Notes under the pieces: model-generated | The model's input: the letters and a program-made list of their open reading frames with translations, nothing else | The model's database searches: none | Told to the model about the DNA's origin: nothing | Shown here: positions 16,602-48,868 of the stretch, piece by piece | How the letters are laid out: every line of letters begins with the position of its first letter | How positions within the stretch are numbered: position 1 is the first letter of the stretch | NCBI GenBank assembly: GCA_965649765.1 | Contig: OZ287757.1 | Location: forward strand, 30,132,001 to 30,196,000 | DNA from: Bispira polyomma | Taxonomy: Eukaryota | Direction: 5' to 3' | Length of the DNA stretch: 64,000 nucleotides | Position numbers and translations under genes: made by a program

Positions 16602-16632
16602 ATCGTCCTGTAATGGTCAATAAAATGAACAT

Positions 16633-17733
16633 ATGAAAATGGGGTTAATTTCTAAAAGAAGGCAATTACTAGGTGTTGTCTTATCAGCAACTTTCTTAGT
16701 ATATAATGTATCATCACTTTACACTTTCATCTACCAAAGATATGAGAGGATACATCAAGCGGGCAGCCTTCAACACTCCACCATTCTTCAATATACCTTT
16801 ATAAACAGGTCAACAACACTCAAGACAGGCTATACAGAAATGGGGAATAAGAGCATAGTAGTCGGTTATAGCAATAGTGTCAACCAAAGCACTGCAGCAA
16901 AAAGACTGGTGGTAAAACAACAAAAAATAAAACTGAACACTAGCCAAGAAACCCATCAAGTGAATCAGTCTGCAGAGGAAATATTACCCATGATAACCCT
17001 GGAATACTTTATACAGGCAAATTGTCCATTTCCTGTCAAGGGAACTAGTCCTAGTGCCAGTGGTCTTTTACTGGTAGCTGTAATAACAGATACCACTAAT
17101 TTTGTACGACGCACCAGGATAAGAAAGAGATATGGAAATGAAAAGAACTATGCAAGGTTTGTGTTCTTCCTTGGCCTATCAACAGATAACTTCATTAATG
17201 TTCAAATACAAAAAGAGAGTGCCCTATATGGGGATATTGTACAGGCAAACTTCTTGGATACCTACAGAAACCTCACACTGAAAACGGTTTCAATGGTCAA
17301 CTGGGTCACAGACTATTGTAACAACAGCAAGTTTGTCCTAAAAATGGATGATGATATGACCTTGAACTTACCAGCTCTCCACAATGTTGTGGTACAAATA
17401 GAAGTCTCAAAAGAAGGCGTCATCACTGGAAACTGCGAGAATACTCCAAAACCAAATAGAAACCCAAAATCAAAGTGGTTTGCAAGTATGGATGCATTTA
17501 CCGAAGAAACATATCCCCCAATATGTCTTGGTCCTTCGTACTTGCTATCAGGAAATGCTTTACCTAAGCTACGAGCCTCCATAAGAGAGACCCCATTCTT
17601 CTGGTTAGAAGATGTCTACTTAACAGGGCTGGTCCGGGAAAAGGCGGGTGTTAGGATTCAATATATACAATCATTTTTCTGTTATCCAACTAGAAACAAG
17701 CACTGTCCTCTGACACATGGAATCAGTCATTAA
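16633..17733 (+). CDS. Beta-1,3-galactosyltransferase-like protein (GT31, Galactosyl_T), type II membrane, single coding exon
   Basis: N-terminal signal anchor and stem, then FVFFLG, ESALYGDIVQANFLDTYRNLTLKT, FVLKMDDD (DxD), YPPICLGPSYLLS and EDVYLTG. The 366-aa ORF is intact. Confidence 0.93.
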   Translation: MKMGLISKRRQLLGVVLSATFLVYNVSSLYTFIYQRYERIHQAGSLQHSTILQYTFINRSTTLKTGYTEMGNKSIVVGYSNSVNQSTAAKRLVVKQQKIKLNTSQETHQVNQSAEEILPMITLEYFIQANCPFPVKGTSPSASGLLLVAVITDTTNFVRRTRIRKRYGNEKNYARFVFFLGLSTDNFINVQIQKESALYGDIVQANFLDTYRNLTLKTVSMVNWVTDYCNNSKFVLKMDDDMTLNLPALHNVVVQIEVSKEGVITGNCENTPKPNRNPKSKWFASMDAFTEETYPPICLGPSYLLSGNALPKLRASIRETPFFWLEDVYLTGLVREKAGVRIQYIQSFFCYPTRNKHCPLTHGISH

Positions 17734-23090: not shown

Positions 23091-23425
23091 TATTGTGAAT
23101 TGCTGCCTACCTGTAACTGTCTGTGGTGACTGTATCCTTAAGACAGCTGTAGTCCACAGTGTCTGTGCCACTGTATGTCACGACTGTCACAGGTGAGGTT
23201 CACACAATGTTCGTGTCACTTTATGACACCGATAAACCATGCACAATGTTTATTTGTTGTCCCAGTATACAACTGTCTGTATTCAAAATATCTGCGGTAA
23301 GTGTCGCTCTCGGGATATCACTTCCGGTCTCGTTTGCGGCAGTTTCACGGCTAGGCGAACGACGACTTTATAACCAGTCTCGTTTGTGGCAGATCCAAGG
23401 CTAGGAAGACGGCGACTTCACAACA
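23091..23425 (-). repeat. 3' LTR (335 bp)
   Basis: Direct repeat of 34441-34761, with about 15 substitutions and a 14-bp indel by eye. Minus-strand TATAAA at 23367-23372 and AATAAA at 23249-23254. Confidence 0.96.
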
Positions 23426-23526: not shown

Positions 23527-26500
23527 TCAATATGTAAGTGAATGCACACCTACATTGATTCCCCCTACCAAAATTATACCGTACAGATTTTTGGTGTTGA
23601 GGAATGTGACCGACAGAACTTCTGGAAGAGGTAACTGTTTTAATTCGGCCACTCTGGAGGCTACCTCCACCAGTCCGTAAGGGGTGTTGAAATTCTCCTC
23701 CTGATGGACAGGCGCCAAAAGATGCGGGGAATCAGTCTCTAGAAGAATCCGGTCGAGTGGTAATGTTCGGACCACTTCCTCAAGCTCATTATGTCTAGTA
23801 TCCCAGAGAAGTATTGCCGTGAACCCAAGCATCACCCGCGGAAACCGTCTTAACCATTCCTCCTTTTCCTCCATCCCCCGTTGTAGCAATGCCTGTGGAT
23901 CCGGTAAGACTGCCTGTGAAACTGAGGCAGCTCCGCCTGCATAACCTTCAGACAATGGTTACTGGCTTCAGTGGAGTAGCTAGCATCGCGACAGTGAATA
24001 ACTAACACTTTCGCCCAAAGCTGCTTTTCAACATAAAAATGAAGAAAGTCAGCCAATACATCACATTGCTGCTTTAAATACTCATGGTGGTAGCCACCCA
24101 GGTCAATACCGATCTCACCAATTCCACGACAATGGCCTTCTTTTGAGATCAACCTTTTCATGCAGTCCATTTCCTTGACTAGAACCCGATGAGCCTGCTT
24201 TGGGTGCACTCCGAAAGTAAAATAAAGAGCTTTTTCCTCTTTCAGAGAATCCAACTCATCCTTGAAGGGAACCTGGTCACAGAAATTACAAACGCCCACC
24301 TCAAGGCACACCGCAACAGAAGGCATAGGGCCATCCTCCAATATTCTACCAAGCTTTTTTTGCTTCGCCTTCTCACGCAGTCTGTCCATGTAGAAATGGG
24401 AATCCCCCAGAGGATATATTACCGGGGCCCCCTCTTCACATGTCAACCCCCTGCCACATACATTCTTTTTGATCATGTTCAACCTTTGGTGTTTCTCCCT
24501 CTCTCTTCTCTCCTCCTTGGTATAAGGCACCCCAATGTTCCCTGGTCTTGTCCTTCTTACTTTGGCCTTAACCTCCACCTTCACACTTCCCGCTGTTCGC
24601 TTGGCTGCCACCTTGCTTGCGTAAGACACCATTGGCACAACAAATACAGGTGACTTCCCCTCTACTTTCCCCTTACACTCAACTGTTTTCTCCCCTTGAC
24701 TGCCAACGGCTGCAGACAAGGTCTCTTCTGCTCTGGCAAGCTGCCTCACAGGTGACGTTCCCTCTACCCTTGAGGATGCCCCCCTGATTGGTTCATCTGT
24801 ATCCATTCGTTCTGGCTCAGAGGGTGGTCTAACAGCAGGAGTGGAAGACACCCCTGATTGTCTAACCTCACCTTCTGGCTCAGAAGGTGGTTTAATAGCA
24901 GGAGAGGATGACACCCCTGATTGTCTAACGTCATCCCCAGCAAGCACCACCTCCACATCAGACTGAACATTCACAGCGTCTACTTGCACCAAAAAATTTG
25001 GTCGAGACCACTGTACTCTTTTCTCACCGACACAGTTAATTAGATGACTCAAAGCTCTCCACTGAACCAATGATGACACACGATTGGGAGGATTGATCCG
25101 TGACGCTATAGTTAAGGGATGTCCAGTAAATCACATATGAAAATTGTTTATCAATGTTTTATCCCCATCAGTCAGTGCATAAAATTCACCGGCTGGATAC
25201 CAGTCCCTTTCCTGAACCAGGTCCAACAACTCATCTAGGTTCCCACAGCCAACTAACCCACTAATGTTCATGAGGACTTACTCAAACTGTTTCATCCTGT
25301 CGTCCAGAGGCATCTCACTCTGCAAGGCACAACAAGCTGGAAGATGTCGCCCCACCATATGCCTTCTAAGGTGTGTTGTTCTCACAGAACAATTGTCCAT
25401 GTAACAGGCATTTTTTGAGGGTTTTGCAGAAAACGATTTATATGCAGATGAAGGTTGATTTTGTCTGATCTTTCTGGGCTGTGTACCAGAGTATCTAGGT
25501 TCTGGTGACCTACGCTTAACACGGTCGTCCGATCCTGACGGTAAACTCTCTTTCAGGGTAACAACTGTAGAGGATCGCTCCACAGGTCGACTGTCCAATA
25601 CTCTGAGTGTCGAGACACTATGACTCGTACTCTCTGCAGAGGATATCTCCGCAGAGTGTGCACTCGACTTGGAACCACCTTGGGCAACTGACGTGACCGC
25701 ACGTGGTTTGCTGGAACGCTCTAAACAAACTGACGTGGTCACACTCGGTTTAGGAGCCACTGATTCGGTCGCACTTGACCTGCTAGGGAGCACTGGAACA
25801 GATGACGTTGCCTCGATGTGAGAAGCGCCTTCTCTGGTTACTCTAGATGAACCCCTGGCACCACGTTCTGGAAGAGGAAACTCTCTGCAAGTCTTGCATG
25901 TGTCTAAGTCCTTTAAACACCTGGCCAATAAACGTGTAACATAGCTGAACAAGCAAATCACTTATCTCCTGATCCTCTTCCCTCGTTAGTTTCCTCTGGC
26001 TCGAATGATCATAATCCTCATTGATGCGAAAAGAATCATGATGAGGACTCTCTTCTCTGTATGTAGGACGAGGATAGGAATCATGATATCGACTCCTCTC
26101 ATCATGACTATACTCTGTGTGATTTCGGCGTCGAGAAGAATCGTGATGAGGACTCTCTTCTCTGTATGTAGGACGAGCATTGAAATCATGATATCGACTT
26201 CTCTGATCATGACTATACTCTGCGTAACTTCGGCTTGAAGAACCCGAATCGCGTCTGGAGTAGGAATTAGAATAGCGACTCCTCTCATTTTGGCTATAAC
26301 CTGTCTGATTCCGGCGTGAAGAATCTGAATCATGTCTGGAGTAGGAATCAGAATGGCGACTCCTCTCACCCTGGCTATATCTTATCTGACTTTGATACGA
26401 GAAATCCGAATGGCGACTCCTTGCATCCTGTCTGTCAGTGGAAACCTCGTGGCTGTCAGGTGAGGAATCCTGATAACGACTCCCCGAAAAACTACCACCT

Positions 26501-26538
26501 CTGGATCTTCCACGTTGATAGCTAAAACGTCTCTGCAT
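23527..26538 (-). pseudogene. Gypsy accessory ORF3 (~1000 codons): RS-rich repeats - C2H2-like motif - TatD-family nuclease; two frameshifts and two in-frame stops
   Basis: TatD motifs in order: GDSHFY, FGVHP, GIGEIGID, LVIHCRD, IHRHCY, LGFT, PLDRILLETDSP, NTP. ORFs 25278-25961 and 23850-25079 are in the same frame with readable sequence between them. A 1-nt frameshift lies in the G-run at ~23878. Confidence 0.88.
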
Positions 26539-26651: not shown

Positions 26652-29600
26652 TTAAGTAGTATACTCAGACAGGTACTTTGGTCTTCTTTTCTCCCTTCCT
26701 GTCCTAGTAGCTCGAGATGAGTCTTCAGATGCATGAGGTGGTAGCATGGCCGGGGTTGTTACTTCCGAAATAGTTGTTTCTGAGGTAAGAGGTACAGACG
26801 GTTCACCATTCTCTAGAGGTTGTGAATTCTGCTTGGTATCACCATGAGTTTCATTTGAGTACAGCCAATTAATATTTAGATTATCGATATTCTCACCGGA
26901 TTCTGTATCAGGATTTCCATTTTCCAGCAATTTGCTTCTTTTTCGGCTTAACCACAGAGGTATAACCCGATCCCGACAAGGTTTTAACCTGTCATGGTGT
27001 ATTACAAAGGTTTTCTTACGATTGGCGACCCTGAATAAGATTGGAGATAACACCTCAACAACGAGGAATGGTCCCTTCCAAATCTGTTGTAGCTTACTAC
27101 TTTGTCCAATCTTTTTAGCTGAGTCCAACTGATAAACCACATCACCTGGTTCGTAAGTGTTCACCTTCAAACGCAAGTCATAATCCCATTTCTGTCTTTC
27201 CTGCGTTGATTCCAACTTTTCCCTAGAAAACATTTGCACCTTTTGCAGAATAGTTTGTAATTGATGCACATATTCAGCTGGAGTTGACTCCTGTAGCCTG
27301 TCAAATTCTCCCAGCATTAAATCAATGGGCGCCAGAACTTCACGACCAAGCATCATTAGATTCGGTGTAAACCCTGTCTGTCGATTCACAGTAGACCGGA
27401 TTGCCCCAGCTAATTGCTGTAAATGCTGATCCCATGACTGATGACCATCCTGCAGAAAACACCAGATCAATTGCAGAATCGTCCGATTATATCTCTCTAC
27501 CTAACCATTAGAGCAAGGATGATATAGAGTAGTTCTAGTTTTAGCTATTTGCAATAGTTCACAGACAGAAGTGAATAATTTCCCATCAAAATTCATCCCT
27601 CGAATCTTGAGATAAAACCATCAACAACACATTTCGCAACACTCTCAGCTGTTTGATTTGGCAAAGGATAACACTCAAGCCACTTGGTAAACTGACCCAC
27701 TAACATTAAGACATACTGATTACCATTTGCACTCGGAGTAAATGGTCCTAGAATATCCACATGTACTCTCTCCAGTGGAAATCCAGCATGGTACCGTCCT
27801 AAAGCTGCTTTGGCCTTTATGTTAGCCTTTTTGTTTTTGTTACATACCGGACAAAATTTCACATATATTTCAATATCCTTGGTGATCCCATATCACATAA
27901 ATGATTGCTTAACCCTAATTGTGGTTTTCGTCACCCCCATATGTCCAGTTAATGGTAAATCATGATTGTAGGAAATAACTTCCTGTTTCAGTTTTCCTGG
28001 AACCATTAATAACAGTCTATCACCAAATTCTCTCCACCTGTAAAACAACAATCCATCCTGGTACACCAACTGCTTTCTACAGATATAAAAATGTTTAACT
28101 TCAGGACTGCATAGAAATAACTCCTTCTGTTCTAACTCTTTCCCTGAGGTCAACCAGCTGATCAATTTTCCCAGAGAATTATCAGATAGCTGTGCTTCTT
28201 TCAGCTGATCACGAGAATATCCCTGGATCCAAGGAACAGATCTTCCAACGATACCTTTTGCTGTTATGGACTTGACTGCTAACGGCGCTACATCATCAAC
28301 ATCCTCACTGAATCTGGACCACTGTTTATGTGCTCTGCTGCAATATTTACAACCTCCACAAGGCAATGATAATGGATCTAATCGTGCCTTATAACATTCA
28401 CAGAAAAGATAATCATCTGGTATCCTTGACATTCCATCTGCGTTTCCATGCTTAACCCCTGGTCGATGGATAACGGTCATACTGAATTGACTTAACTCCT
28501 CCAACTAACGAGCTAACTGACCCTCTATGTGCCTGAAGCGCAATAACCATGTTAAACTGTTATGATCAGTTCTCACAAAAAAATTTCTAGCAAGCAGATA
28601 ATGTCTATATTGCCTAGTAAATCTGACAACAGCCAACAACTCTTTCCTGGAGATGCAGTACCTCCTCTGCTCAGGAGATAACACATAACTACTATAACAG
28701 ATGACTTTCTCTACTCCCTCCTGCACTTGTGACAATACTGCTCCGATAGCAAACTCAGAGGCATCTGTATCTGGTACAAATGGATCTTCCGAATTTGGAT
28801 AGGCTAATAAAGGAGCTGATGTCAACAGCTGTTTTATAGTTTCAAAAGCTAACTGATGTTCTTTCTCCCACAAGAAACTAGCCTTTGAGCCTGTCAGTTT
28901 ATACAACACAGATGTTAACTTGGAATAATCCTTAATATGTTCTCTGTGATAGTTAACAAATCCTAAGAATTTTTCCATGTCCTTTACAGACTTAGGTATT
29001 GGCCACTTTTGTACTTTGTCAATATTTTCAGGATTTACTGCTACACCTGCAGAACTTACTATCCTACCTAGGAACAAAGTCTCCGTTTGAAACAAAGAAC
29101 ACTTTTTTGGCTTCAATTTCAAATTGTATTTTCTGAACCTAGCGAGAGTCGTTCGTAGATTATTCATAGGATCCTCAAAATCCTTCCCTAAAATTATAAC
29201 ATCATCAAGGTACGACAGCAGCTTATTCCATGTGAGACCACGCAGAACAAATTGTATTACTCTTTGGAAGGTTCCAGGAGCATTACAAAGTCCGAATGCC
29301 ATTCTTTGATGTTCAAACAATCCGAACTTCATTATGAATGCTGTTTTGTGCCGGTCCTTAGGTCTCAATTTGCCAATAACCGCTGGCCATATCGAAAGTA
29401 GAAAAATACATGTTTCCAGACAGCTGATCAAGACACTGAGATATGGAAGGTAATGGAAACAAATCTTTAACAGTTTTTGAATTCAGCGATCTGTAGTCCA
29501 CACAGTACCTCACACTTCCATCCTTCTTCCGAACTAGCACTGGAGCTGATGCCCAATCAGAGGAAGACTCCGATATAACACCAACATCCAGCATGAGCTT

Positions 29601-30734
29601 AAGATTCTCCTCTTCCTCCCCCTCAACTCCAATAGGAGTTCTGCGCATTGGTTGCTTCACTGGACGTTCATTACCGGTATCAATGCAGTGTTTTATCTCT
29701 GCAAAACAACCGAGATCACTGCTCCCATGTGGGAATATATTTTGGAAGTCGATCAATAAGGCTCCTAATCTCTGAACTTGCATTTCATCCAGCTTAACTT
29801 TTGACCTTTCTAACAGTCCTGTTAAATGTTCTGGTACTGTCCTGACAAACTTCTAGACTATCCATAGCTATACTTTTCACTTGAAACTGCTGATCCCCAT
29901 TCCAGGATATAAAATCACACTCAACAGCATACCCTAAAACATGAGTCGGTTTTAAGGTGATACTACTGTCAGTATCATCCACAAGTTGCACAGGAACTTG
30001 TTTATTTCCCTTACATAATGTATATGGCATTAGTAAACCCTTGTTGTTTCCAGTTGATTCAACTATAAAGTCATTCTGGGATGTCAGGGAAGTTTTTGCC
30101 ATAGTTCTTACACACTGTTTGGTGGCACCCTTATTTTTTTATCAAGGAACACCCGACAAGTTTCATAAATACCATTTGACTTGGATTTTATATGATTAAA
30201 CTCTAACACCTCTTCTTTTAAAGTAAAGGTATAATCTATAAAGTTCAATTTTTCCCCGAAATGACACATGAAATCCATACCTATAATGATGGTATCTTTT
30301 ATAGATGCTACAAACAAATCCCAGACATATGAATGTTTTTTGTCAAAAGAAATTACAATCCCCTGAATCAATCATGCCTCAGCACTCATATCCATGCTAA
30401 TACCCTGTAATAGAACCCTTTTAGTTAACTTTGGTTTCTCTGCAAGCTTATCATACAAATCATAGTTTAAAACAGTCACCTCAGACCCAGTGTCTAATAA
30501 GGCCACGGTGTGACATTCATTTACTGTACAATTTACTATGGCACTTAAAGACTCATTTTCCATAGGTAATTTGGCTACCCTTGAATGTCTGGAGCTCTCT
30601 TGGGATTTGTTGCCAATAATTTCACTATAACCAGACAGGTAAGGTGATCCGTCTGCAAATCGAACAGTTTTCTTCCGTGCAGTCTTATTAGATAAAGGCA
30701 GGTGATTCAACCCGCCCTGACCTACTTGTTTAAA
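26652..30734 (-). pseudogene. pol: Gypsy pol (aspartic protease, RT, RNase H, integrase), interrupted
   Basis: LLDTGSEVTVL; WASAPVLVRKKDGSVRYCVDYR; YLDD; TDASEFAIGAVL, KELLAV, TDH; HDLPLTGH...CPVC; VHVDILGP; GPF module (WKGPFLVVE...HHDRLKP). Confidence 0.95.
30695..30734 (-). promoter_or_regulatory. -1 programmed ribosomal frameshift signal (gag-pol)
   Basis: U UUA AAC is in gag phase at 30734-30728, just before the gag stop. A 9-bp stem follows at 30718-30695. The -1 frame is the protease frame. Confidence 0.8.
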
Positions 30735-32215
30735 GAATCAAATCTTCCTCTAGGACTTGTGGAATTACTGTTTTGCACACCTCTGGGAGAACCGCTTCTC
30801 TGTTGTGGCTGAGGTGAATAAGATCTGAACCCCTGTGGCTGAGGTGAATAAGATCTGAACCCCTGATTCGCCTTCTGGTAAGATGGCCTAAGGTCTACAT
30901 TGGTCTCTGTGTTTGTATTGCTGCGCCAGTTTTTGTCATCACTTCTGCTAGGGCTACAGTGAGGTGATTGATTTCTTCTTTTGGGACAATCCCTCACTAA
31001 ATGTGATGTGTCGCCGCATTCAAAACAGGCCATGCCTTTAGGCTTTGAAGAATTTGATTTTGTCATCAAGGCTAACACTTCAGCTATTGAATTCTTCATC
31101 TCTTTTAGACCAATCTCCACAGCTTCCAGACGCTCTGTATGTGGCACTGATGGTTTGGTACCCGACTTGTTCTTAAACTGCAAGTTTCTCACTTTGGCGT
31201 TGCTTATAGAACAAGTCCCCGAACTGTCACTATCAGAACTTGTCTGTAATACCATTTCAAGTTTCTTCACATTGCCTCCACCCTTCTTCCCCAATATAGT
31301 CCTCCGATAGGTAGATGCAGATGCATATAATTTGACAAGAGTATAAGCCTCCTCCAAATTCCGTGGATTTTTGTTACAAACTGCTCTAACTGCTCCCTTG
31401 TCCTTACATCCTTTCAGAAACACTTCCACAAACAGAGAGTTATTGAATTCTTGGTCCCGAATATTTGGATACGCGTCCAGGATCATCTTCTCAAGTTGTG
31501 CCAAATACTTCTCAAGTGTTTCATCTTCATGTTGCTCTGTGGAGAGTAATGCCCATCTGACTGTTGTTGGTGGTTCAACTTTGTTGAAGTTGTGCTCAAA
31601 CTTTGTTTTCAACCAACTAAAGCATTTCAACTTCTCCTTGGGCAGTATGCTGTATTACTCCAGAGCTTCTTTCTTCATAACCATCGGAAAGGTATCTAGC
31701 TTATCAGCTTCTGACCAATTGAATTTGTCAGCTACAGCTTCAAACTGCGCAATAAAACCTCTCCAATATTCCCCGGAAAAAGACATTTTAGGGATCTGCA
31801 TCTTGTTCCTTACTGATGCGGGAGTACTGGTGATACGGGAACTTCTGCTCACTCTGGATGGCTCAGCTGCAATGGATTCACCTTCTGAGTGAGAAAATTG
31901 TAAAGACCCATCACAAGAACTATCCAGATTACACTTGGGAGTTGGTTTCGATGGCAACTTCCTACGCATGGTTGTCTTCTTGCTCTCATTACCAGTGATA
32001 TTTCTGTTATGACCTGATCGGCTTCCACCAGTATATTTTCGGGAATCTGTTTTATTCTCAATGCAGGTCACAATGCGGTTGATATCACTGTCTTCAGGAT
32101 CCTTGGGAAGTATAGAACTCTCAGGCACTTTTTTCTCAACAGGTAATGGCCTTCCAATTGATCCTACAGGCTCACCTGAAACTACTTTCACTGCATGCCC
32201 AGACTGAGGCCCCAC
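30722..32215 (-). pseudogene. gag: Gypsy gag (capsid-like region and CCHC knuckle), one in-frame stop
   Basis: FSGEYWRGFIAQFEAVADKFNW, Q..DETLEKY, FLKGC, CFECGDTSHLVRDC. Confidence 0.9.
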
Positions 32216-32436
32216 TAACTGTGATAATATGGAATCCCCTGCGACTAGTGAAAGATTAAGATCAAGACCAGTCCAGTCCAGTCCAAATCCTTGTCGTCAG
32301 GATACTGTACTGGCAATGGGTAGTCCACATCAAACCGTTGTTTCATTTTGGTAACCCCCTGATTGATGTTTTCCACTGCCCGCTTTGCTTTGCTGTTCAA
32401 ACCTCCCCATTCCAATCTACTTCTGTTATGGAAGAC

Positions 32437-33420
32437 TCAATACTCATTTACCAACTCCTGATTCTGATGATGAAGTTGTGCAATGTTATGTCTTTGACGT
32501 TCACAGTTTTTAAAGTGTGACCTCTGAAATTCATTCTTTTGCCGATTGATTTCATTGAAGTTTCGATAGGATTCCTCTACGCCTATTTCTGCTTCCACTT
32601 TTAACAGTTCTTCTTTCGGCAAAGATTTCTCCTCAGAAGGAGTACTGGCTCCTCCCAGAGTATACTTCAAAGGAGGATTAACTCCCTTTGAAGCATATTT
32701 AGTTGCCTCGACAGGAAATGTAAACATTTGTCCTTCCTGTTTCCCTTGTAATGATTTCGCCCCTAAAAGAGGATTAACTCCTTCAGCAGCAGGTTTTGTT
32801 GCCCCAACAGGAAATGAAAACATACTATCTCTCTGCCTTTCCTGTGATGGTTTCTCATCAAAAAGAGTATTAACCCCTTTTGAAGCACCTGCCTTTGATT
32901 TAACAGGAAGTGAAGATAATTTCTTTTCCTGTTCTTGTACCTGTTTTTCAATCCCGGCAACTTTAAGCTTCCACACACCAACATCCTCCTTGACTTCTTG
33001 GACCTCTTTGCTCAACTGGCCCACATCTCCCTTGAGGAATTCCAAACCTGGCACCACATAATCTTTCAGATCCTTGATCTCTTCTTTCACAGATTTCATA
33101 TCCCCTTTGAAATCTTGCATATCACCATTCATTTGCTTCATTAGATCATACAGTAAATCAAGTCCAACTACTTCCTCTTTCACATCCATTTCCCCTTTTG
33201 AAGGAGAGAACACTACACCACTACTCAGTATATTCTCCTTGACATGCTCTGGTAGCTCCACTGTCTGAAAATCTTCCAGGGACATGAATTCCAGGGACAT
33301 GAATCCCCCGAACTTCGCTCTATGCTCAAGAATCAGTTCAGCTCTACGTGGACCAACATCGTTACTCTCCATCAACTCCGCCATAGTCGCTGTATTGATG
33401 TTCCACCCAGCTTCCACCAT
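32437..33420 (-). CDS. ComEA-like helix-hairpin-helix + coiled-coil ORF (probable N-terminal extension of Gag)
   Basis: WNINTATMAELMESNDVGPRRAELILEHRAKFGGF(MSLEF)MSLEDFQTV matches the HHH_3/ComEA pattern ININTA..EL..L.GIG...A..I...R...G.F.S.EDL..V. Heptad-like repeats follow. Confidence 0.75.
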   Translation of the reverse strand: MVEAGWNINTATMAELMESNDVGPRRAELILEHRAKFGGFMSLEFMSLEDFQTVELPEHVKENILSSGVVFSPSKGEMDVKEEVVGLDLLYDLMKQMNGDMQDFKGDMKSVKEEIKDLKDYVVPGLEFLKGDVGQLSKEVQEVKEDVGVWKLKVAGIEKQVQEQEKKLSSLPVKSKAGASKGVNTLFDEKPSQERQRDSMFSFPVGATKPAAEGVNPLLGAKSLQGKQEGQMFTFPVEATKYASKGVNPPLKYTLGGASTPSEEKSLPKEELLKVEAEIGVEESYRNFNEINRQKNEFQRSHFKNCERQRHNIAQLHHQNQELVNEY

Positions 33421-34440
33421 GTCAAGTTTGTTTCGTTTTTAAAATTCACCTTTGAGGAATTTTAAATCAACAGCCTTGAATAAACAAGCTCTGTAACATG
33501 CAATTGACCTATACCTGTTTAAAACAAGTGAAACTTAGATCGCAATGCACAACATTAACACTTGACTACAATTACAACTAGTTAAAAAGAATAATGAATT
33601 CTTTCAACAGCACTTGATTAAATATATCAATCAATGTAATCAATACCAATCACCATGCAGTCCAAAAACAAGTATCAATGAAGTCCAATACCAAAAATCG
33701 CCCATACAAACTTCAAGTATAATTCACCACAAACTAAAATTTCTAATCTAATTTTCTATCAACTACTGTAGAATTTACGATACATTTGTTTCGGAACAAA
33801 CACAAAAAAAAAAAACAAAAAAAAAAACAATTTCCAAATGAATATTTTCAATTTTATTGATACTTCTTTTCCCAATGTACTTTAATTTATTTGAATTAGC
33901 AAAACATAAACAAACTCTGGATTACTTAATTATATTAGTATTTCAAATATTCATATGCAATAAATATGTAATATCTCAATATTTCCTCAAATTTACTGAT
34001 TAATTTACAACTAGTTTTATTCAAGATTCAAGAAAATTAACTTTACATTTAATGAGATAAATTTAGAAAAAAAAAAAAATAATAATAAAAAGAATATCAA
34101 AATTTACTATATATACACTAAATTTAATATATAATCAAGAAATACAATGCTATATAAATTGTACTGCTTGCAAATAATTTGTAATAGACTGCAATAAAAA
34201 TATTGTCAATAAGCCTAATTATAGCCTAGTCACAGTTGCTATGCACCAAATCATGGTAATTGCCAATCAAAATTACCGCTACATGAACTGCCAGTAAATT
34301 ACTTGAATCTTAATTCAAATACAGTTCCAAATAACAATAACTATACACAAGTAATTTTAAACTGAATTGCACCTTAAAATACTTGCAATTGCAAACAATG
34401 ACAGCTAATACTGGGTACATTCACAAACAAATGGTACCAA

Positions 34441-34761
34441 TATTGTGAATTGCTGCCTACCTGTAATTGTCTGTGGTGACTGTCTCCTTAAAGCAGCTGT
34501 AGTCCACAGTGTCTGTGCCACTGTATGTCACGACTGTCACAGGTGAGGTTCACACAATGTTCGTGTCACTTTATGACACCGATAAACCGTGCACAATGTT
34601 TATTTGTTGTCCCAGTATACAACTGTCTGTATTCAAAATGTCCGCGGTAACTATCACTTCCGGTCTCGTTCATGGCAGTTTCACGGCTAGGCGAACGACG
34701 ACTTTATAACCAGTCTTATTTGTGGCAGATCCACGGCTAGGAAGACGACGACTTTACAACA
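34441..34761 (-). repeat. 5' LTR (321 bp)
   Basis: Direct repeat of 23091-23425. It is followed on the minus strand by T-TGGTACCA at the PBS position. Confidence 0.96.
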
Positions 34762-34910: not shown

Positions 34911-37900
34911 ATGGCAAACATAGGAAATAGCATTAAGGTGTTATCTGCAAACTGTCAAGGTTTCAGAAGCCCCAAAAAACGGTTAGATGTGATATTATAT
35001 TTAAAAGAAACAAATGCCAACATTGTTTGCAAGACACACATTTGACGGATAAAGATATTGAAGCTATTAAAACGTTATTTAATATTGAAATCTATTTAAA
35101 CGGCAGCAGGACTAATTCTCGTGGTGTGGCAATTCTCCTAAATAATAACTTTGAATATGAAGTACTCTCCTATAGCAAGGACAAAGATGGAAAGCTTTTA
35201 AATCTCTTATTGAAGTTAAGCTGTATGACAATAAATCTGATCACTTTATATGGTCCCAATAATGATAGCCCAGATTTTTTTGACAAACTACATACAGATT
35301 TACAAAATGAAAATGCAGACTATTGTATAATATGTGGTGACTTTAACTTGGTCTAAACCCAGATTTAGACAAGCATAATTATAAAAACATAAATAATCCA
35401 GATGCAAGGCTCTCAGTTTTGAATATGATCAGCGAGGTTGGTCTATGTGACATCTATAGGCAATTTCATCCAGACAGAAAACGTTATACCTGGAGTAAGA
35501 AAACCTAGTTAAACAAGAAACGCTCGATTTTTTTTAGGGTCATCAAGTATTTTAGATATAACAAACAAATGTGACATATAATTAAGCTACAGATCTGATC
35601 ATTCCATTATAGAATTGGAATTTATGCTTAATAAGTTAATAATAGGCAAGGGAATCTGAAAATTCAACAATAATTTATTGGAACACCCTGATTTTTAAAA
35701 TTAATTAATAACATAATTGAGGATGAGAAAGAAAAATATACTCTCCCTATTTATAATCTGGATTTTCTGAAAGAAAATGATTCAAATATTGTCTTTACTA
35801 TTGACATTGGTACTTTGATAGAGAAATTATTCCTCAGAATAAGAGGGGAGACCATAAAGTTTGCTTCTTTTGAGAAGAAAAAGAATATTACAAATGAAAA
35901 GAATTTGATAACAGACATTGAAACTTTAGAATCTAGCGATACTCTGCAAGAAACTAATGCTCAATTCTTACTTGATAAATAAGATGATTTAGAGAAAATT
36001 AGAAAGACAAGAATAAAAGGATAATTAGTTAAAGGATACAATGGCTTCATGAGAGTGAAAAACCTCCTAAATATTTCTGAAATCTCGAAAAAAAAATTAC
36101 TTGAACAATGATTCTTGTATCACTGAACAAGGAGAAAATCAGAAAGACAACAATAAAAGGATAGTTAGTTAAAGCTTGGATACAATGGCTTCATAAGAGT
36201 GAAAAACCTCCTAAATATTTCTGCAATCTTGAAAAAAGTATTACTTAACCAATGATTCTTGTATCACTGAGCAAGGAGAGGTACTGCGCCACATAAGGGA
36301 ATATTATGTAAATCTTTTTAAAAGTAGAAATAATGATCTTAGTGACACAGATTTTGAACAGCTCGGTTTGAACTTCGATAAAACTGTGGGCAACAAAGAT
36401 TTGGGTTTACCTTTGAATGTGGCTGAGGTCGCGTTTATATTGAAAAAAAATGAAACATAATAAAACTCCTAGCATGGATGGGATTACAGCAGAATTTCTA
36501 ACAGTCTTTTGGGGGAAATTAAAATATTTATTACAAGTGCAATAAATTGCTGTTTTAGCAAAGGTTAGTTGTCAAATACACTATGTCGGTGTGTAATAAC
36601 ATGTATGCCAAAACCTAATAAAGATAAGGACTTTGTAAAAAAAATGGCGTTCAATCTCACTTTTGAGTATCTTATATAAATTAGCATCAGGCACAATTTC
36701 AGAAAGACTGAAACCAACATTAAATCACATAATATCCAGCTGTCTAACAGTCTTTATCAAAGGCAGATTTATAAGTGAAAATACAAGGTTGATATATGAT
36801 TTTTTAAATGCTACAGAGTTAAAAAATATCCCCAGCCTCTTGATGTTAAATGATTTTGAAAAGGCCTTTGATTCCCTTTCTTGGAATTTTTTATATAAAG
36901 CTTTGGCCTCTTTTGATTTTAGTAAAAACCTTATCAAATAGATAGAACTATTTAATAAGTATATCACAGCTTTTGTTTTACAATTCGGAGTACTATCAAA
37001 GGAAATACCTGTTGAAAGAGGATGCCGACAAGGTGATCCAATTTCACCCTATTTATTTTTGATAGGTGCAGAAAAATTATCGATGTTAATACAAGTAAAT
37101 CCACATATTAAAGGTATTATGCTAAATAAAACCAAGTTTAAACTCAAACAGTTTGCAGATGACACCACTTCAATGCTTGATGGAAGTCAGTGCTCCTTAC
37201 AAGTAACTTTAAATGTATTAAAAATATATGGAAACATATCTGGTTTATGAATGAATAAAGACAAAACTAATGTCATTCGGATTGATCGGAAAAAAATTTC
37301 AAGGAATAAATTAAAAGTGTCCATAGATTTGAAATGGGGTGAATCTAATTTTAGTTTATTAGGTCTGGAATTTTCGACAAATCTGCAAGAAATCTCAGAA
37401 CATAATTATAGTAAGACACTAGAAAGTATTAAAAAAGAGGTAACTAAATTGAATAGCCGGTATTTAACTCCATTTGGAGAAATAAAAACCAAAATTTTGT
37501 CAAAATGTATCTATCTACTAACAACAGTAGAAAGGTCAAATTCTTTTCTCAAGAAAATTAATTATACTTGATACAAGTTTTTGTGGGATGGTAAACCTGA
37601 TAAGATAAATAGATCTCTATTTTGCTCTGATTATATGCATGGAGGAATAAAAATGATAAATATATATAATTTTGAAAAGGCATTGAAAGTCAGCTGGATT
37701 AGGGAGCTACTATTCCAAACCAACTCTCAATGATATAAACTCATTGATGAAATGTATGGAAATATCAGTCATGCACTAACATCTGGTGGTGGGTGGAGCT
37801 TTAAAATTGTAAACAATATCCAGAATCAATTTTGGAAAAATATTTTCGAAGACTGGATGCTGTTATGCGATAAACAAAGAGTTAATACGAATTCCAAGAT

Positions 37901-38577
37901 TCTTCGTTCATGCATTTGGTATAATCCACAGATATTCAAAACCCCCATCTTTTTATCAGACTGGTTAAAAAGAGGAATCTATATGGTTGGAGATATACTT
38001 GACACAAATGGGGGAATATTGAGTCTGAACGAAATTAACAGTAAATTCAAAATTAAGGTAAATTTTTTTAACTATTATGCTGTTAGCATGAACATCAAAA
38101 TGTTTCTTACGAAGTATAAAAGTGAAGGTCCTTGGCTGTATGAAACACCATTTAGGTTAGATTTTACCATCCCAAAAATGTTGTAGAGAATTCTATAATT
38201 TATTTAATGAAATAAAGTTGAATAAGAAACCCTTTTGTGAATTGTTATGGGAAAACACGTTAAATGTGGAAAACTTTCAAGCAAATCGGAAAGAGGTTTG
38301 GAACAATATACACAAAAGCTGCTTCAAAAGTGTTAATGATAATTGTCTTATCTGGTTTCAGTATCGAATACTTTTCAAAATTTTAGGTACCAAAGATAAC
38401 CTGAGCAAACTAAGGCTTTCTGATAACAGTAAATATAGATTGTGTAATCAATTCTGTGAAACGATTAAGCATCTCTTTTGTGTGAAAGTAAATGAGCTTT
38501 GGCAAAATATTAAACAATGGATTTTAAATAAACTTGGCATTGATTTTACAATAACTAACACCATGAAAATTCTGTGA
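34911..38577 (+). pseudogene. L1/Tx1 ORF2 remnant (EN-RT-zinc finger)
   Basis: VLSANCQG, QDTH, SRGVAIL, YGPN, CGDFN, DFEKAFD, GCRQGDPISP, QFADDT, ETIKHLF. Many stops, and a ~140-bp internal duplication at ~35994-36279. Confidence 0.9.
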
Positions 38578-42348: not shown

Positions 42349-43341
42349 TTATACGGCATTAAGTAGGCGCTGGAAAGTTGAAGCCACTTCTGTTGAGCCA
42401 TTATTGCTCTGAATATAAGTCCATACACAATCCGACGTCCAGGTGCCATGCTCTTTGATTTGTTGTATAGGTACATCTGCTTTATAAGCCAGAGTGGCAC
42501 CTGAACGTCGGAATGCATGGAATGTATAATAATTAGATGGATACCCCAATTTATTGTTAAGTAGTGCCAATGTTTTCCTAACTCTTGAATCCGTAGCCAC
42601 CTGCCAGCCCTGAGCCGTCTTGCATTGGAACAATGGGTCTTTCTTACCAGGACTGTAAAGATGAAATAATTTTCTTAAGGCTGCATATGGACAAATGACA
42701 GCAGAACCTAGTCGTGGCAATGTCAAAAATTGCACCTTGTCCCTAGTTTGCATAGTCTTTGTCCATTTTAACAATATTTTGACTGTGTGCTTCTGAAAGA
42801 ACACATCTGCACCAGTTAAATGCCTGGTGTGATAGAATTCCCTGATTGCATGCAGTGCGATATTTGAGAGTCTCAAAAAGCCAAAGAATCCTGTTAAGAA
42901 TATACCCTTGTATACATGCGAGTTGCTTATATGGTTGCATTGAGCTACTAATCTTTCAAGCGTGGGCACATCCATGATATTTCTCTTAACTATAGTATGA
43001 GTTCTATTAATCTTTAATGACTTGATGAAGTATTTTATTTTCGGGTGATCAAAGATTACAAATTGTAAATCATATACAATACACATGGCTTTAATAGCTG
43101 CAACATAGTTTGCCACCATATAAAATGAAACTTTATTGATAACCAAAAACTCTAGAAATGACATAATACCATTTACATTTAAACATTCCAGTGCTATATT
43201 AACACAAAGGCAAAAAGCCACAAAAGTTCTAAATAAACCTTGGTAGCAACGCATGGTCTTTGTTCGAAAGGCAGTGTGTAATCTCTTGCTAGCTTTTATC
43301 TGTAGCTCTTGCACTGCTCCAGGCTCTACAACACAAAGCAT
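42349..43341 (-). CDS. Tyrosine recombinase (phage-integrase family)
   Basis: Uninterrupted 330-codon ORF with R (FLRLSN), K (WTKT), HAFRR, HGTW and Y (VWTYI). Confidence 0.9.
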   Translation of the reverse strand: MLCVVEPGAVQELQIKASKRLHTAFRTKTMRCYQGLFRTFVAFCLCVNIALECLNVNGIMSFLEFLVINKVSFYMVANYVAAIKAMCIVYDLQFVIFDHPKIKYFIKSLKINRTHTIVKRNIMDVPTLERLVAQCNHISNSHVYKGIFLTGFFGFLRLSNIALHAIREFYHTRHLTGADVFFQKHTVKILLKWTKTMQTRDKVQFLTLPRLGSAVICPYAALRKLFHLYSPGKKDPLFQCKTAQGWQVATDSRVRKTLALLNNKLGYPSNYYTFHAFRRSGATLAYKADVPIQQIKEHGTWTSDCVWTYIQSNNGSTEVASTFQRLLNAV

Positions 43342-43352
43342 AGTATCTGTTA

Positions 43353-45234
43353 TTAAAGTGTATTATCAATGTCTGTCAACTCTAGAGACGTTTTTAACCA
43401 TACTGTGTTTTCCACCAATGTGTTCAATTCTTGTACATTATCAATTGTATATTTCCAACGTGACAATAAATCAGCGATTCTGTTGTCTCTTCCCATGACA
43501 TGTATATATTGGAGCTCAATGTCTGCTGCTGCAGCCATATACCAAATATTTCTCGCACATGCTGAGAGATAAGGGTCTCTAGCCCTGCAACACATTCACA
43601 ACTGCATTGTTATCACATTAAATAAGGACCTTGCTGCCTGTCCAATATTTTTGGTATAACTTTAAAGCTACTAATATGTTAATCATCTCAAGATGAACTA
43701 TGCCAAGATTTTGGAAATTTGTTGGTATTGGGAGATGATGTACCAAACTTCTCCATCTTCCTCCCAGGCCATAAAGGCAGGCGTCTAATTCCAATGTTTG
43801 ATCAATGCTTTTATGTCCATACATAGATACACCATTGCATAGAGGCAAGAATCTATCAAACCATCTCAGGTCCCGTTTGAAATCTTCTGTTAAAATTACC
43901 TTATTTGGATTTGAAATACCTCTTAACAATTCCAACATCCTATTTAGGAAACACCTCGCAGGTTTGACACATTTGTGAATGTATAACAATTGACCCAACA
44001 AGGATTGCAACTGTTTCTTGGTACATTGGATTTTATTTTGCCATTGACTAACCGTAGTTCTAATTTGCTGTAATTTCTCATCTGGTATGGCAACTGTGCC
44101 TTTTACGGTGTCAATTAGGACTCCTAGGCACACTGCCTGTGTGCTAGGGGAATGATTGTAAGTCCTAACTTTTCCATGATTTCATACAAGCACTGAAATG
44201 AGCGTTTTGCTGAGGTGGGGGTGCCGTAACCAAGAAAATCGTCTATATAGTTGATGACGCTGTGGCCACGTAGATGCATGATGTAACGCACGGCGTCACT
44301 GACGCGTTGGAAGAATTGGCTGCCGTGACGGCTCCTAAAGGGGAGACACGTGTCTACATAAATACCTTGCCAATTGAGTCCTAACAGGTCATAATCTATG
44401 GGGTCGATTTTTAAGTGGCGAAATGCGCGACTTACGTCCAACTTATAGATGTGAGCGCCTATTCCTAATTTGGTAAGTTCTTTAGTAAGGTCGTCAATGG
44501 TGGAGAAGCTGAGCTTAAAATCTTCCCCTAAATAGCTTTAATAATAAAATAAATAATCTTTTTTCTACCCCAGCATTTACTGAATAAGCTTTAGGCCAAC
44601 TCAAATCTATAATTACTCGCCTGTTATCTGAATTAGGCTTGTGCCTAGTCATGAATGGTGAATGATGGCCGTTTGCAATTGGGTTTTGTTTGAAGGGTCC
44701 TATTATCGCCCCGTGACTTTTTTCCTCATCAATGTAGACCTGAACATCATTGGGATGTTCTATTGCTGACTTATGATTGTCCACATCACACCTGAGTTCA
44801 CATTTTCGATTAAAGCCTAAGTGAAACCCAAACTCAATGAGCTGAAGTAATTGCTGATTCCAATAGTCCCTCAACATAACCTTCCATTGTTCTGTGTTTA
44901 ATTGAGATGTCACTGGTATTCGAGCCCCCATAAAATTTGGTTGCTCCTTTCCTTTGACTTTCTGATGTAACTTAATTGGGCATTGAATGGTTGTGTTTGT
45001 TAAGCCGCTACCACTTGGTAGTGTTTGCTCAGTCATTGGAATAAATCCAAATTGAAACTCTGATTGTTTTGTAAACTTAGTGAAGCTGTCACAATTGCCA
45101 CTGATTTGTTTTGCTTTGACACCTTTGTTGTGAAACAATATCGAGTTAATGAATTTATCGTCCTGAATGCCATTTACATCAAACAATAGTTTTGTTTTGG
45201 CTGGGCTATTGTCATCGTGCGCCACTTTGTTCAC
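43353..45234 (-). pseudogene. DIRS-type reverse transcriptase/RNase H, frameshifted
   Basis: RRVIIDLSWP, DVSRAFRHL, YIDD, LQSLLGQL, LDACLYGLG, HLEMINI, NRIADLLSR. Confidence 0.9.
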
Positions 45235-45779
45235 TTTTGTGGCGGAACCCCCCTTTGTGATTGTTGCTTGTCGTGTGTACCTCTTTGCTGTAAGAGAAAG
45301 GGTTTTTGTGTTGTGACACTACTAACCGCATTGTTTGATTTCACGTAGAGTGTTTTGACACCCTGTGGTCATATTTGGTGTTTGTTTGCTTTACATCGGC
45401 ATAAGATCTGGTTTTGACGTCATAACTGACCGCCCGATATGTGCACATGACACTTTGAAACGGACGAACGAGTAAACTTTCTATGTCACTTTTTCTCACT
45501 TTTTCGCTATAAAAACATCTGCCAACATGACTTGTGTCACGCTGTTTACATTTAAAACCAGCCAGGTACTTTGCCTGCTTTGTACTGACATTTGTAACAA
45601 TAGTATTTACACATTCAGTATTACCAACGCTAGAACCATTTGTTTTTCCATTCACACTAAAAACATTGACAACCTCTCTGTTTTTGTTTACCTGTAACTG
45701 ACTGGCCTAACTACTAAACCACCTGCCCTCCAGTTTAGGACTACGAGGACAGCTACTTACTCATTTTTTGCTTGTGCTT

Positions 45780-46737
45780 GATTCTTTTTGGCCAACAAAC
45801 AATCCTTTTTGGGATGAGCCAAAATGCGACCTATACTAATGCAAAATGAACAAATATGTCTGTGGATCTATACGATCTATTCTATTTGTGTCATCCCAGG
45901 TAAGGGAGCCCCTCTCCATCTCCCACAGGAGTACTGCGTGAGCTGCCTTAGCCCCCTGCCACGTAAAATCTGTGGCTTCCTTGATTAAATCAGACATATA
46001 TGTGATAATTTTGTCTTTCTTACCTCTATCTGATTCCTCACTTATGTTTTTACAAAAACCTTGTACCCATTGGGACATTGACAACTGATCATACGACAAT
46101 CAAGTTCTTGTGGCCCCCCTAATATTGATTCTTGAGGCCACGCTACTTTTTGTTTTACCACAACTTCCACTGGACCACCCGTTTTTGATTTAATTTTATT
46201 TACATTCTCAGTACCAGAATTTCTGCTGTCCTTCTCCAGTTCCCTTAATCTGGAGTCAACTCTACGGTCAAAAGCCAAACTAGGGAGTACTTGTTCCTCA
46301 TCAGAGGATTCACTATTAGATGTACTATCACTGCTATTCTGGTTATTACATTGAACATTAGTTTTTTGACGAATTTTACTTAACTTCCGTCCACCACTTT
46401 TGAGCACGTCCTTCTGTCGGCTGTTGCTGGATTCCGCTACCTGCTCCTCTACTACGTCAAGACGAGAGTTTACCCGCTGTAGTTCCCTCAATATCTGCAA
46501 CTGGACACTATCCTGGACACTATCCCGCTCTGCACTACTTCCCACAGCTCTTGCACTATAACTTTGCTGCCCATTTTCGCTAACATTAGTGTCCAACACT
46601 GTATGGGCTTCCAACACTGCCGTGTCATTACTATTGAATTTTTCAGTCAATTTTACACCACGTGTGCACTTTTTTCCTGTTGGTGGAACATGTCTTTCCT
46701 CACACTTTCTACACAGCGCCTTTGATTGTTTAGGCAT
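45780..46737 (-). pseudogene. DIRS/Ngaro gag-like ORF, frameshifted
   Basis: N-terminal CRKCEERHVPPTGKKC, VAWPQE, YDQLSMSQWVQGF, FTWQGAKAAHAVLL. Confidence 0.8.
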
Positions 46738-47809
46738 ATTTCTAAATGATTACTGTTTATGCTATTTTGTTCATATATCAGTTTCTGAAAATAAAAAAAT
46801 ATACACAGGCCCACAGCGCTCGTTCCTTACAGCACCACGACTTGGTTTAACTCGATGAATTTGACTATAAAGCAAGAATGATAAGTTAGGTTAGACCATC
46901 CCTTAATTCCGACCTAAAAAGGTCAAACCAAGCATGAGGCTGTCAGAATGAGCGATCTGTGAACAATGAAAGAGAGCCGTTGTCAAATCCACACAATGTC
47001 TGTTGTAGATAACTAAAACACTAAAATAAGTCCTTGTAGTATAACACGTAAAACATAAAATAAAACAGTTTGTAAAAGAAATTGAAGAAAGAATTTTACT
47101 TTTCTGCCACACTTGTCTGTGGCAAAATTCAAACTGACTTATTATTAGGTGAAGAACCCTTCTGTTTATGGCTACAGCCAATGAGATTGATTGTTTGACA
47201 TTTACATGGAGGTTTGTTTACTTGTTTAGCCATTAAGCAATTTTTACCTGTGTATTAGCCTGATACTCTCACTGAGTTTAAGGTCGTGTAGGACTGACAA
47301 GGGCAATGCCTTAACACTGCCCCCGACAGTCAGTACAGATGTGAAGCCATGTCAATATTTTATTGTGTATTGCTTTTGATTTGTGAAACTTGTCAAATAT
47401 ACCAGTCGACATGTAGGTGGTCTTCTATTATCTACAATAGCTCACATATGGTATATAGCAGTGTCAATGATGTAATACACAGATTTAATGCTCATATCTA
47501 TGTTTTTCTTATATTCCATGATATTAACATACATTAATTAGAAGTGCATACCCCCAAGAAGGCAAGTTAATTGGTTCGATATTGTTTATGTCACCCACAA
47601 ACCAACAAATATAGGCTATACTATTGGCAGAGCTAACCAGGTATTCAACATTCCATTCTTTTGAGTAGACATCCATCAATGGTCCATGTATAATTGATTT
47701 CTGTATATTTTTAATTATTTCAAACTTTTATTCATATTCACTAATGTTATTCTTTTGTTTTTAATCTTTTAGTTCGTCCTGTAATGGTCAAGGAAATAGA
47801 CATATTAAA

Positions 47810-48868
47810 ATGGGATTCATTTCTAAACGGAGGCAATTGCTAGGTGTTGTCTTATTGGCAACTTTCTTAGTATATAATGTATCATCACTTTACACTTTCA
47901 TCTACCAACAATATAAGAGGATACATAAAGCAGGCAGCCTTCAACACTCCGTCATTTTTCAATATACCTTTATAAACAAGCCAACAAGAATCAAGAGCAT
48001 AGTAGTCGGTTATAGCAATAGTGTCAACCAAAGCACTGCAGCAAAAAGACTGATGGTAAAACAAGAAGAAACAAAACTGAACACTAGCCAAGAAACCGAT
48101 CAAGTGTACCAATCTAAAAAAGGAAATATCACCCATGCTAACCAATGAATACTTTATACAGGTCAATTGTCCATTTCCTGTCACAGGAACCAGTCCTAGT
48201 GCCAGTGGTCTTTTACTGGTAGCCGTAACAGATACCACTCATTTTGTACGACGCACAAAGACAAAAAGGCGGTATGGAAATGAAGAGAACTATGCAAGTT
48301 TTGTGTTCTTCCTTGGCCTATTAACCGATAACTTAATCAATGTTCAAATACAAAAAGAGAGTGCCCTATATGGGGATATTGTACAGGCAAACTTCCTAGA
48401 TACCTGCACAAACTTCACACTGAAAACGGTGTCAATTGGGTCACAGACTATTGTAACAACAGCAAGTTTGTCCTTAAAATGGATGATGATATGACCTTGA
48501 ACTTACAAGCTCTCCACAAAGTTTTGGTACACATGGACATCTCAAAAGAAGGCGTCATCACTGGAAACTGTGAGAATACTCCAAAACCAATTAGAGATTT
48601 CAAATTAAAGTGGTTTGCAAGCTTAAAGGAATTTTCCAGAGAAAGATATCTACCCATATGTCTTGGTCCTTCGTACTTGCTATCAGGAAATGCTTTACCT
48701 AAGCTATGAGCTTCCATAAGAGAGATCCCATTCTTCTGGTTAGAAGATGTCTAATTAACAGGGTTGGTCCGGGAAAATTCAGGTGTTAAGATTCAATATA
48801 CACAACCACTTTTGTGTTCTCCAACAAGAAACAAACGCTGTCCTCTTACACATGTAATCATTAAATAA
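47810..48868 (+). pseudogene. Beta-1,3-galactosyltransferase-like pseudogene (paralog of 16633-17733)
   Basis: Highly similar to the intact copy, but with frameshifts at ~48120 and ~48432, CGA>TGA at 48707, and TAC>TAA in EDVY. Confidence 0.92.

Follow-up and report, generated by a model that had tools for sequence, protein, structure and literature searches.

The N-termini of Ty3/Gypsy Gag proteins are poorly understood, and how these elements gain access to chromatin or protect their cDNA is an open question in most invertebrate lineages. Short nucleosome-binding peptides, in p12 of murine leukaemia virus and in the chromatin-binding site of foamy virus Gag, tether to chromatin. In plants, TR-GAG elements are non-autonomous LTR elements in which gag is kept and pol is absent. 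ComEA, a bacterial uptake protein (HHH_3, PF12836; structures 8dss, 8dfk and 2duy), has an oligomerizing segment beside its helix-hairpin-helix (HhH) domain and was reported to require oligomerization for transformation (PMC9747964). Its binding to DNA was reported to need a residue of the K164/K63 type, being abolished by K166A in the protein of G. stearothermophilus and by K62/63A in that of V. cholerae (PMC9747964, PMC3879209). EEPD1, as described in PMC12988330, joins two (HhH)2 domains to an EEP-fold domain (9yi2), so that HhH and a nuclease-fold partner lie in one genetic unit; its binding is avidity-dependent, and the isolated (HhH)2 domains gave no stable DNA binding.

The nearest printed precedent among retrotransposons is the DEDDy ORF3 of Juno and Vesta, Ty3/Gypsy-type elements of bdelloid rotifers in which a non-env ORF3 encodes a 3′-5′ nuclease with intact catalytic residues (PMC5408684). 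The fold of that nuclease is not that of TatD, and the elements are described in that paper without a Gag-nuclease frameshift fusion; its text gave 0 matches to TatD or helix-hairpin, so no HhH-Gag is reported there. A search of the full-text literature (subscription journals, Repbase reports and supplements fell outside its scope) returned no description of an HhH-Gag or of a TatD-carrying Gypsy element, and look-ups of these terms in PMC13524379, PMC8220671, PMC6238403 and PMC12709183 gave none either. The CERV ‘helix-hairpin-helix’ of Cer1 was considered as a precedent and set aside, since its source assigns it to an accessory protein, as a separate domain that contains a leucine zipper. 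The HhH at the head of the Gag reported here is a real, conserved domain that marks a TatD-carrying Gypsy clade and is apparently undescribed.

The window (the whole stretch of 64,000 nt that was analysed, C10:30132001-30196000 in a 1.04-Gb assembly) contains an LTR retrotransposon on its minus strand, with the HhH in ORF1 and Pfam matches following in the order zinc knuckle, protease, reverse transcriptase (RT), RNase H, integrase and TatD (Table 1). The presence of LTRs with a target duplication, and of gag followed by PR-RT-RH-IN, identifies it as a decayed copy from a Ty3/Gypsy lineage. Its two LTRs are identical at 305 of 321 aligned bases, and every gene between them is broken.

Table 1. 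Positions, within the window, of the parts of the HhH-Gag retrotransposon
Feature	Position	Strand	Remarks
5′ LTR (TGTTG...CAATA)	34441..34761	-	Flanked by the 4-bp target duplication ATAT
TTGGTACCA, putative primer-binding-site position adjoining the 5′ LTR	34432..34440	-	9-mer recurs in group A and E′ copies
Splice-donor-like site AAG/GTGAAT	33444..33452	-	29 nt 5′ of the Gag ATG; found by an approximate weight matrix in all six group A copies scanned
gag (HhH, coiled coil, linker, second conserved helical block, capsid, CCHC knuckle)	30722..33420	-	Split into three pieces
ComEA-type HhH domain, Gag residues 1 to about 71	33208..33420	-	Pfam and PDB sequence matches; model and fold search on a sister copy
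Arg26, counterpart of K164 in B. subtilis ComEA and of K63 in that of V. cholerae	33343..33345	-	Alignment to 8dfk
15-bp in-frame tandem duplication	33274..33304	-	Period 15, 2.1 copies, 100%
Predicted coiled coil right after the HhH	32896..33159	-	Heptad pattern in the sequence; conserved in groups A-B
Three GVN-containing degenerate repeats of 32 codons, in the linker	32677..32877	-	96-nt self-match in sisters
Slippery heptamer T-TTA-AAC just 5′ of the gag stop	30728..30734	-	Stem-loop downstream; a -1 shift into the pol frame is predicted
pol (protease, RT, RNase H, integrase)	26652..30737	-	Broken by several stops and frameshifts
ORF3, broken	23578..26538	-	ATG right after a polypyrimidine-YAG acceptor-like site; R/S-rich repeats; Cys/His motif; TatD
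Class II TatD domain, C-terminal in ORF3	24398-23578	-	Pfam; within the same LTR pair as the HhH
3′ LTR	23091..23425	-	ATAT comes right after

ORF1 runs from an ATG at 33420 to a stop at 32437-32439 on the minus strand and contains the peptide from which an earlier note on this DNA had proposed an HhH of the ComEA/EEPD1/Tex type. Pfam HHH_3 matched residues 7-44 of the window copy with an E-value of 3.4e-7 (30.7 bits; gathering cut-off 27) and a sister without the 15-bp duplication with an E-value of 2.1e-8. Three sisters scored 31.9-34.5 bits, while the copies of group C stayed below the cut-off of 27 (18-25 bits). A profile built from 11 natural copies had EEPD1 as its best match in the PDB (E 1.1e-11), together with ComEA (E 7.2e-10), a second ComEA structure, KIF22, GspK and TEFM. 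Structure prediction and fold searches were performed on a sister copy lacking the duplication. The model showed four helices without a connector helix (pLDDT 78, mostly at least 90 across the core), and its top fold match was ComEA 8dss, with a Foldseek probability of 1.0 and an E-value of 0.012, which is above 0.001; the comparison of the two (VIA) gave a Z of 9.5 and an rmsd of 1.9 over 65 aligned residues. PsbU and GspK, neither of which is known to bind DNA, also shared the fold. The HHH_3 scan and the structure prediction by which the earlier note meant its proposal to be judged thus both agree with it.

The resemblance to ComEA extends to the fold, the NIN-A-EEL start, the K164 equivalent and, in part, the first hairpin, and an oligomerizing segment beside the HhH is predicted in the Gag as well; unlike ComEA, the domain is fused to a retrotransposon Gag, and its DNA binding is a prediction. 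As in EEPD1, an HhH shares a genetic unit with a nuclease-fold partner. The protein is nevertheless not an EEPD1, since it has one HhH domain rather than two, fused to Gag, and no EEP match, and the nuclease is a TatD barrel encoded in another ORF or frame. The HhH region of the full-length Gag gave no match at E 0.001 in a word-index search. The HhH profile retrieved mostly multi-HhH ComEA-like proteins, those with the look of element-derived proteins being 3 among the best 150. Three database proteins from other assemblies (P0038, P0046 and P0094) share the HhH N-terminus, and the ESM Atlas gave a weak HHH_3 lead (score 0.76). Bacterial ComEA-like proteins and host proteins had overlapping scores as possible donors of the domain. 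An EEPD1-like gene of the host (L091, G000:C4:34918886-34919347) encodes two tandem HhH with a Val at the K164-equivalent position in both, so EEPD1 would be no more than a possible donor.

A genome search with the HhH returned 31 matches, and further copies were found by anchoring on TatD and RT. We divided these sequences, by the HhH itself, into ten groups with pairwise identities of 17-49%. The position equivalent to K164 of ComEA, three places past the hairpin Gly, was R or K in all ten; this register comes from the 8dfk alignment, with a numbering that agrees with K193, K197 and K199 by hand count. In the G-h-G of hairpin 1, the second Gly was present in the ten groups and the first in five of them, Asp taking its place in the group of the window copy. 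The second motif (GIG in ComEA) was absent from every group and mostly replaced by an h-Pro turn, which makes the domain a degenerate variant rather than a full two-hairpin ComEA domain. The core of group A is acidic (5 K/R vs 10 D/E), and the aligned stretch of ComEA is likewise not basic overall (7 K/R vs 9 D/E, by hand count). The HhH forms an island of conservation relative to the linkers, and all eight pairs compared within groups had a dN/dS of 0.13-0.38 over the first 66 codons (dS was saturated once different groups were compared). At the level of codon comparison, the HhH is shown to be conserved under purifying selection.

The gag of the window copy is interrupted by the stop that ends ORF1, by a frameshift near 32281-32257 and by an in-frame stop at 31655-31657. 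For each of these breaks there is one or more natural sisters whose frame stays open across it, which supports the suggestion that 33420-30722 was one Gag ORF. The sister L023 has a frame of 590 codons from the HhH through to the capsid region, and two group C copies (L041, 858 codons; L046, 841 codons) hold HHH, Retrotrans_gag and zf-CCHC in a single natural frame, so the HhH does head Gag. The ORF also recurs in sister copies, with HhH matches across the genome that include close sisters. A search with the capsid region found four database proteins, all of which begin within or downstream of the HhH. Other traits mentioned in the earlier note fared unevenly. The 15-bp duplication (MSLEF) is present and in frame; it occurred in none of 13 close sisters and is the private decay of one copy, not a family feature. 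The coiled coil is predicted from a heptad-type region at about residues 88-175, conserved between groups A and B, with weak Pfam coiled-coil matches below the cut-off. The three GVN repeats are real (tripeptides at 32877, 32781 and 32685, spaced by 96 nt); since the block shows little or no conservation in groups B and C, it is a group-level repeat in a linker poorly conserved outside group A. Of 13 copies checked in groups A to C, 12 have the heptamer T-TTA-AAC 5′ of the gag stop, and it also occurs in group E; in the window it is followed by a stem-loop (fold z -2.9 for the downstream 73 nt). With this arrangement the HhH would head Gag and Gag-Pol alike.

The earlier note had suggested looking for co-occurrence of HhH and TatD. 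Among 30 HhH-anchored stretches, TatD lay within 10 kb in 21 and slightly farther in two; the other seven, lacking TatD, were truncated or deleted within the sequence examined. Conversely, 28 of 40 TatD-anchored stretches had an HhH match. In a tree of 68 RT rows, drawn from the elements of this genome only and leaving out L042 and rows with fewer than 140 aligned RT residues, a branch supported at 100/98 set the 44 TatD-positive rows (35 with HhH) apart from all others. The 24 outgroup rows had neither module; in 20 of them both LTRs lay inside the stretch analysed. The nine TatD-only rows were placed among HhH-positive sisters, no group held one module without the other, and a TatD tree agreed with the RT tree in its three main groups. 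HhH and TatD are thus present together in the ten groups; because these make up a single RT clade, both modules were present at its base, and their co-occurrence counts as one inherited event rather than as independent evidence of functional pairing. The abundant TatD (151) and HhH (31) matches in this genome are to be taken as element parts, not as host repair genes.

The majority of rows in groups A, C, G, H, I, J and E carry the TatD metal motifs DSHFH, GExGxD, VIHC, HRHC and LETD. The metal-binding residues of class II TatDs, defined by HxH (PMC10085689), are kept, and nuclease activity is predicted. In the window copy a Tyr replaces the second His of HxH, which is His in four of the five other group A rows covering the motif. 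In groups A to E the ATG of ORF3 directly follows a polypyrimidine-YAG sequence, and a scan with an approximate weight matrix placed donor-like sites just 5′ of the Gag ATG in four of these groups (A, B, D and E), not in C. The site at 33444..33452 is a candidate donor of an ORF3 message from which the HhH would be absent; such an env-like layout would put HhH and TatD on separate proteins. The same type of scan found no in-frame donor splicing the HhH to ORF3, and a spliced HhH-ORF3 fusion was not supported: the strong donor-like sites within gag either differ between groups or, where frames are intact, fall in phase 1. Upstream of TatD, ORF3 contains a C-x4-C...H-x4-H motif (25278-25400, minus strand) that is conserved across groups, occurs also in the database proteins P0157 and P0161, had no Pfam match and is possibly a zinc finger. 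Two copies are rearranged: in L023, a single copy of group A, pol is deleted past the start of the protease and the frame continues into ORF3, while in L109 (1164-1577) TatD lies antisense to RT and integrase, probably by a local inversion.

Two offshoots without pol retain both HhH-Gag and TatD. In C′ (L042, L046 and L070) ORF3 is separate and about 67-71% identical to that of group C; the HhH was seen in L042 and L046. The junction that defines E′ was found in at least 25 copies, some of them segmental duplicates, as against about 11 matches to complete elements (an example lies at G000:C1:90004899-90005199; L082, L177). Past the slippery site, the -1 frame of complete elements in group E enters the protease, whereas in E′ it runs for 27 codons and then enters TatD. 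E′ is therefore predicted to yield an HhH-Gag-TatD polypeptide by -1 frameshifting, the most striking addition to what the locus had first suggested. The distance from slippery site to HxH was 261 nt (87 codons) in 9 of 25 copies. TatD was in frame in 11 of the 25, seven of these being stop-free, and was shifted by small and varied indels in the other 14; the chance of an in-frame join is one in three per deletion. Four older pol-less copies bear the first deletion only. An origin of E′ as a retroposed splice product was rejected since its junctions are not GT..AG. Of nine E′ copies examined, five had the two LTRs and a 4-bp target duplication that matched on either side, which indicates that these moved as units. 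For the E′ TatD, dN/dS was 0.25-0.46 against complete elements, 0.30-0.99 among E′ copies and 0.25-0.41 against the older pol-less intermediates, the identity filter lowering dN somewhat. Since divergence along this TatD is patchy, parts of it may have been renewed by recombination with complete elements, which would explain some of the low values. Like TR-GAG, both offshoots keep gag and LTRs and have no pol; unlike TR-GAG, they also keep TatD under selection, and E′ has it in the -1 frame of Gag.

What the domain does can be approached through its position. Retroviral and Ty3 Gag proteins have their N-terminus on the outer side of the capsid layer, so the HhH would face outward from the particle. 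The reading we favour, while giving it somewhat less than an even chance, is that a multivalent HhH grip on the particle exterior would tether the particle, or the integration complex, to host chromosomal DNA. Each HhH alone would hold DNA weakly and irrespective of sequence, and many assembled Gag molecules would hold it strongly, with avidity supplied by the adjoining coiled coil and the capsid lattice. This reading is preferred because of the invariant contact residue, the adjoining coiled coil and the dependence of ComEA and EEPD1 on oligomerization. The proposed role is that of the viral nucleosome-binding peptides mentioned at the outset, a Gag-derived anchor of the incoming complex to host chromosomes; in contrast with those peptides, the element would use a folded HhH with a predicted contact to the DNA backbone. 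Several observations count against the grip: none of the ten groups retains the GIG hairpin, five of them (that of the window copy included) have another residue for the first Gly of hairpin 1, the Foldseek E-value exceeds 0.001 and the fold is shared with PsbU and GspK. TatD is a second co-inherited accessory gene, likely acting inside the particle on reverse-transcription intermediates, since one offshoot has put it in the frame of Pol. In complete elements the R/S-rich N-terminus of ORF3 may load TatD through RNA, an arrangement that E′ would have exchanged for fusion to Gag. HhH and TatD would then share a particle and probably serve different steps, not form one enzyme. A wider picture, which we regard as doubtful, is that an old clade of animal Ty3/Gypsy elements built a dedicated DNA-handling particle, with a ComEA-like Gag grip and a packaged TatD trimming or editing the products of RT, and that TatD in cis was useful enough for a parasitic offshoot to drop Pol and use the Gag-Pol frameshift to package TatD, as a Gag-nuclease fusion produced on the ribosome.

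Other explanations have to be set against the tethering grip. The HhH might hold or condense the element's own RNA:DNA hybrid or cDNA while TatD trims or repairs it, the two acting like a split HhH-nuclease, an idea already raised in the earlier note. Against it, the Gag N-terminus and the position of Pol are expected on opposite faces of the capsid wall, and non-autonomous elements commonly keep Gag for packaging alone. The modules also lie on separate ORFs in complete elements, with no in-frame splice found, and their co-occurrence reduces to one clade and one event. In favour of such pairing, no group has one module alone, two independent pol-less offshoots keep both and so lend it indirect support, and E′ would encode them as one polypeptide; human TatDs were described as 3′ exonucleases and AP-endonucleases (PMC10085689), and TATDN2 as acting on R-loops (PMC10711561). 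On balance we think paired cDNA handling unlikely. We are still more sceptical of the possibility that the HhH no longer binds nucleic acid and now serves protein interaction or assembly, as a matrix-like cap or as the docking site of some host factor. The (HhH)2 domains of XPF-ERCC1 and Mus81-Eme1 dimerize, according to PMC12988330, and the missing second hairpin, the acidic residue that groups A and C have in hairpin 1 and the acidic core of group A would all suit that role; yet the basic DNA-contact residue is invariant where most other positions vary, and the corresponding stretch of ComEA, which does bind DNA, has no basic excess either.

Both modules could instead be cargo directed at the host: they might, for instance, clear cytosolic cDNA or hybrids, or mask them, and so let the element evade nucleic-acid sensing or silencing. 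PMC5408684 suggests auxiliary or silencing-related roles for the nuclease ORF3s of Juno and Vesta, and the ORF3 layout is like that of a separately spliced accessory gene. However, a domain covalently attached to the N-terminus of Gag and a TatD placed in the Pol frame point to the particle, and the purifying selection seen on HhH and TatD is also set against interference with the host, which we consider improbable. There is hardly any room left for a chance HhH-like match or a recently captured, functionless host fragment: the domain is short and the window copy dead, but the score exceeds the Pfam cut-off, the fold matches, ten groups and three proteins of other assemblies share the N-terminus, and selection is purifying. 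This last explanation is refuted by the HHH_3 score, the conservation across ten groups and the low dN/dS. A folded domain with one invariant DNA-contact residue makes the question of chromatin access and cDNA protection directly testable in vitro. E′, for its part, is a natural experiment, suggesting that the accessory nuclease acts in the particle and that frameshifting can deliver cargo other than Pol.

The target sites showed a bias: the 4-bp duplications conformed to RTAY in 10 of 15 group A flanks (L144-L173), and those of E′ (L174-L182) were ATAT, GTAT or CAAC. The RTAY bias can be accounted for by integrase alone and is thus not a demonstration of tethering. The window holds other sequences besides the HhH-Gag element. 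A galactosyltransferase ORF (PF01762, E 6.8e-42) and a broken duplicate of it, about 89-93% identical, occupy 16624-17730 and 47758-48730 on the plus strand. Two decayed LINE-type elements with pieces of endonuclease and RT lie at 7229-10746 and 34937-38577 (+), the latter starting about 170 bp from the 5′ LTR. Remains resembling tyrosine-recombinase retrotransposons (DIRS/Ngaro-type) are found on the minus strand at 42352-46749 and 697-1812, with a weak SAM-like integrase match (E 0.006), and units of 39 and 40 bp form tandem arrays at 53270-54198.
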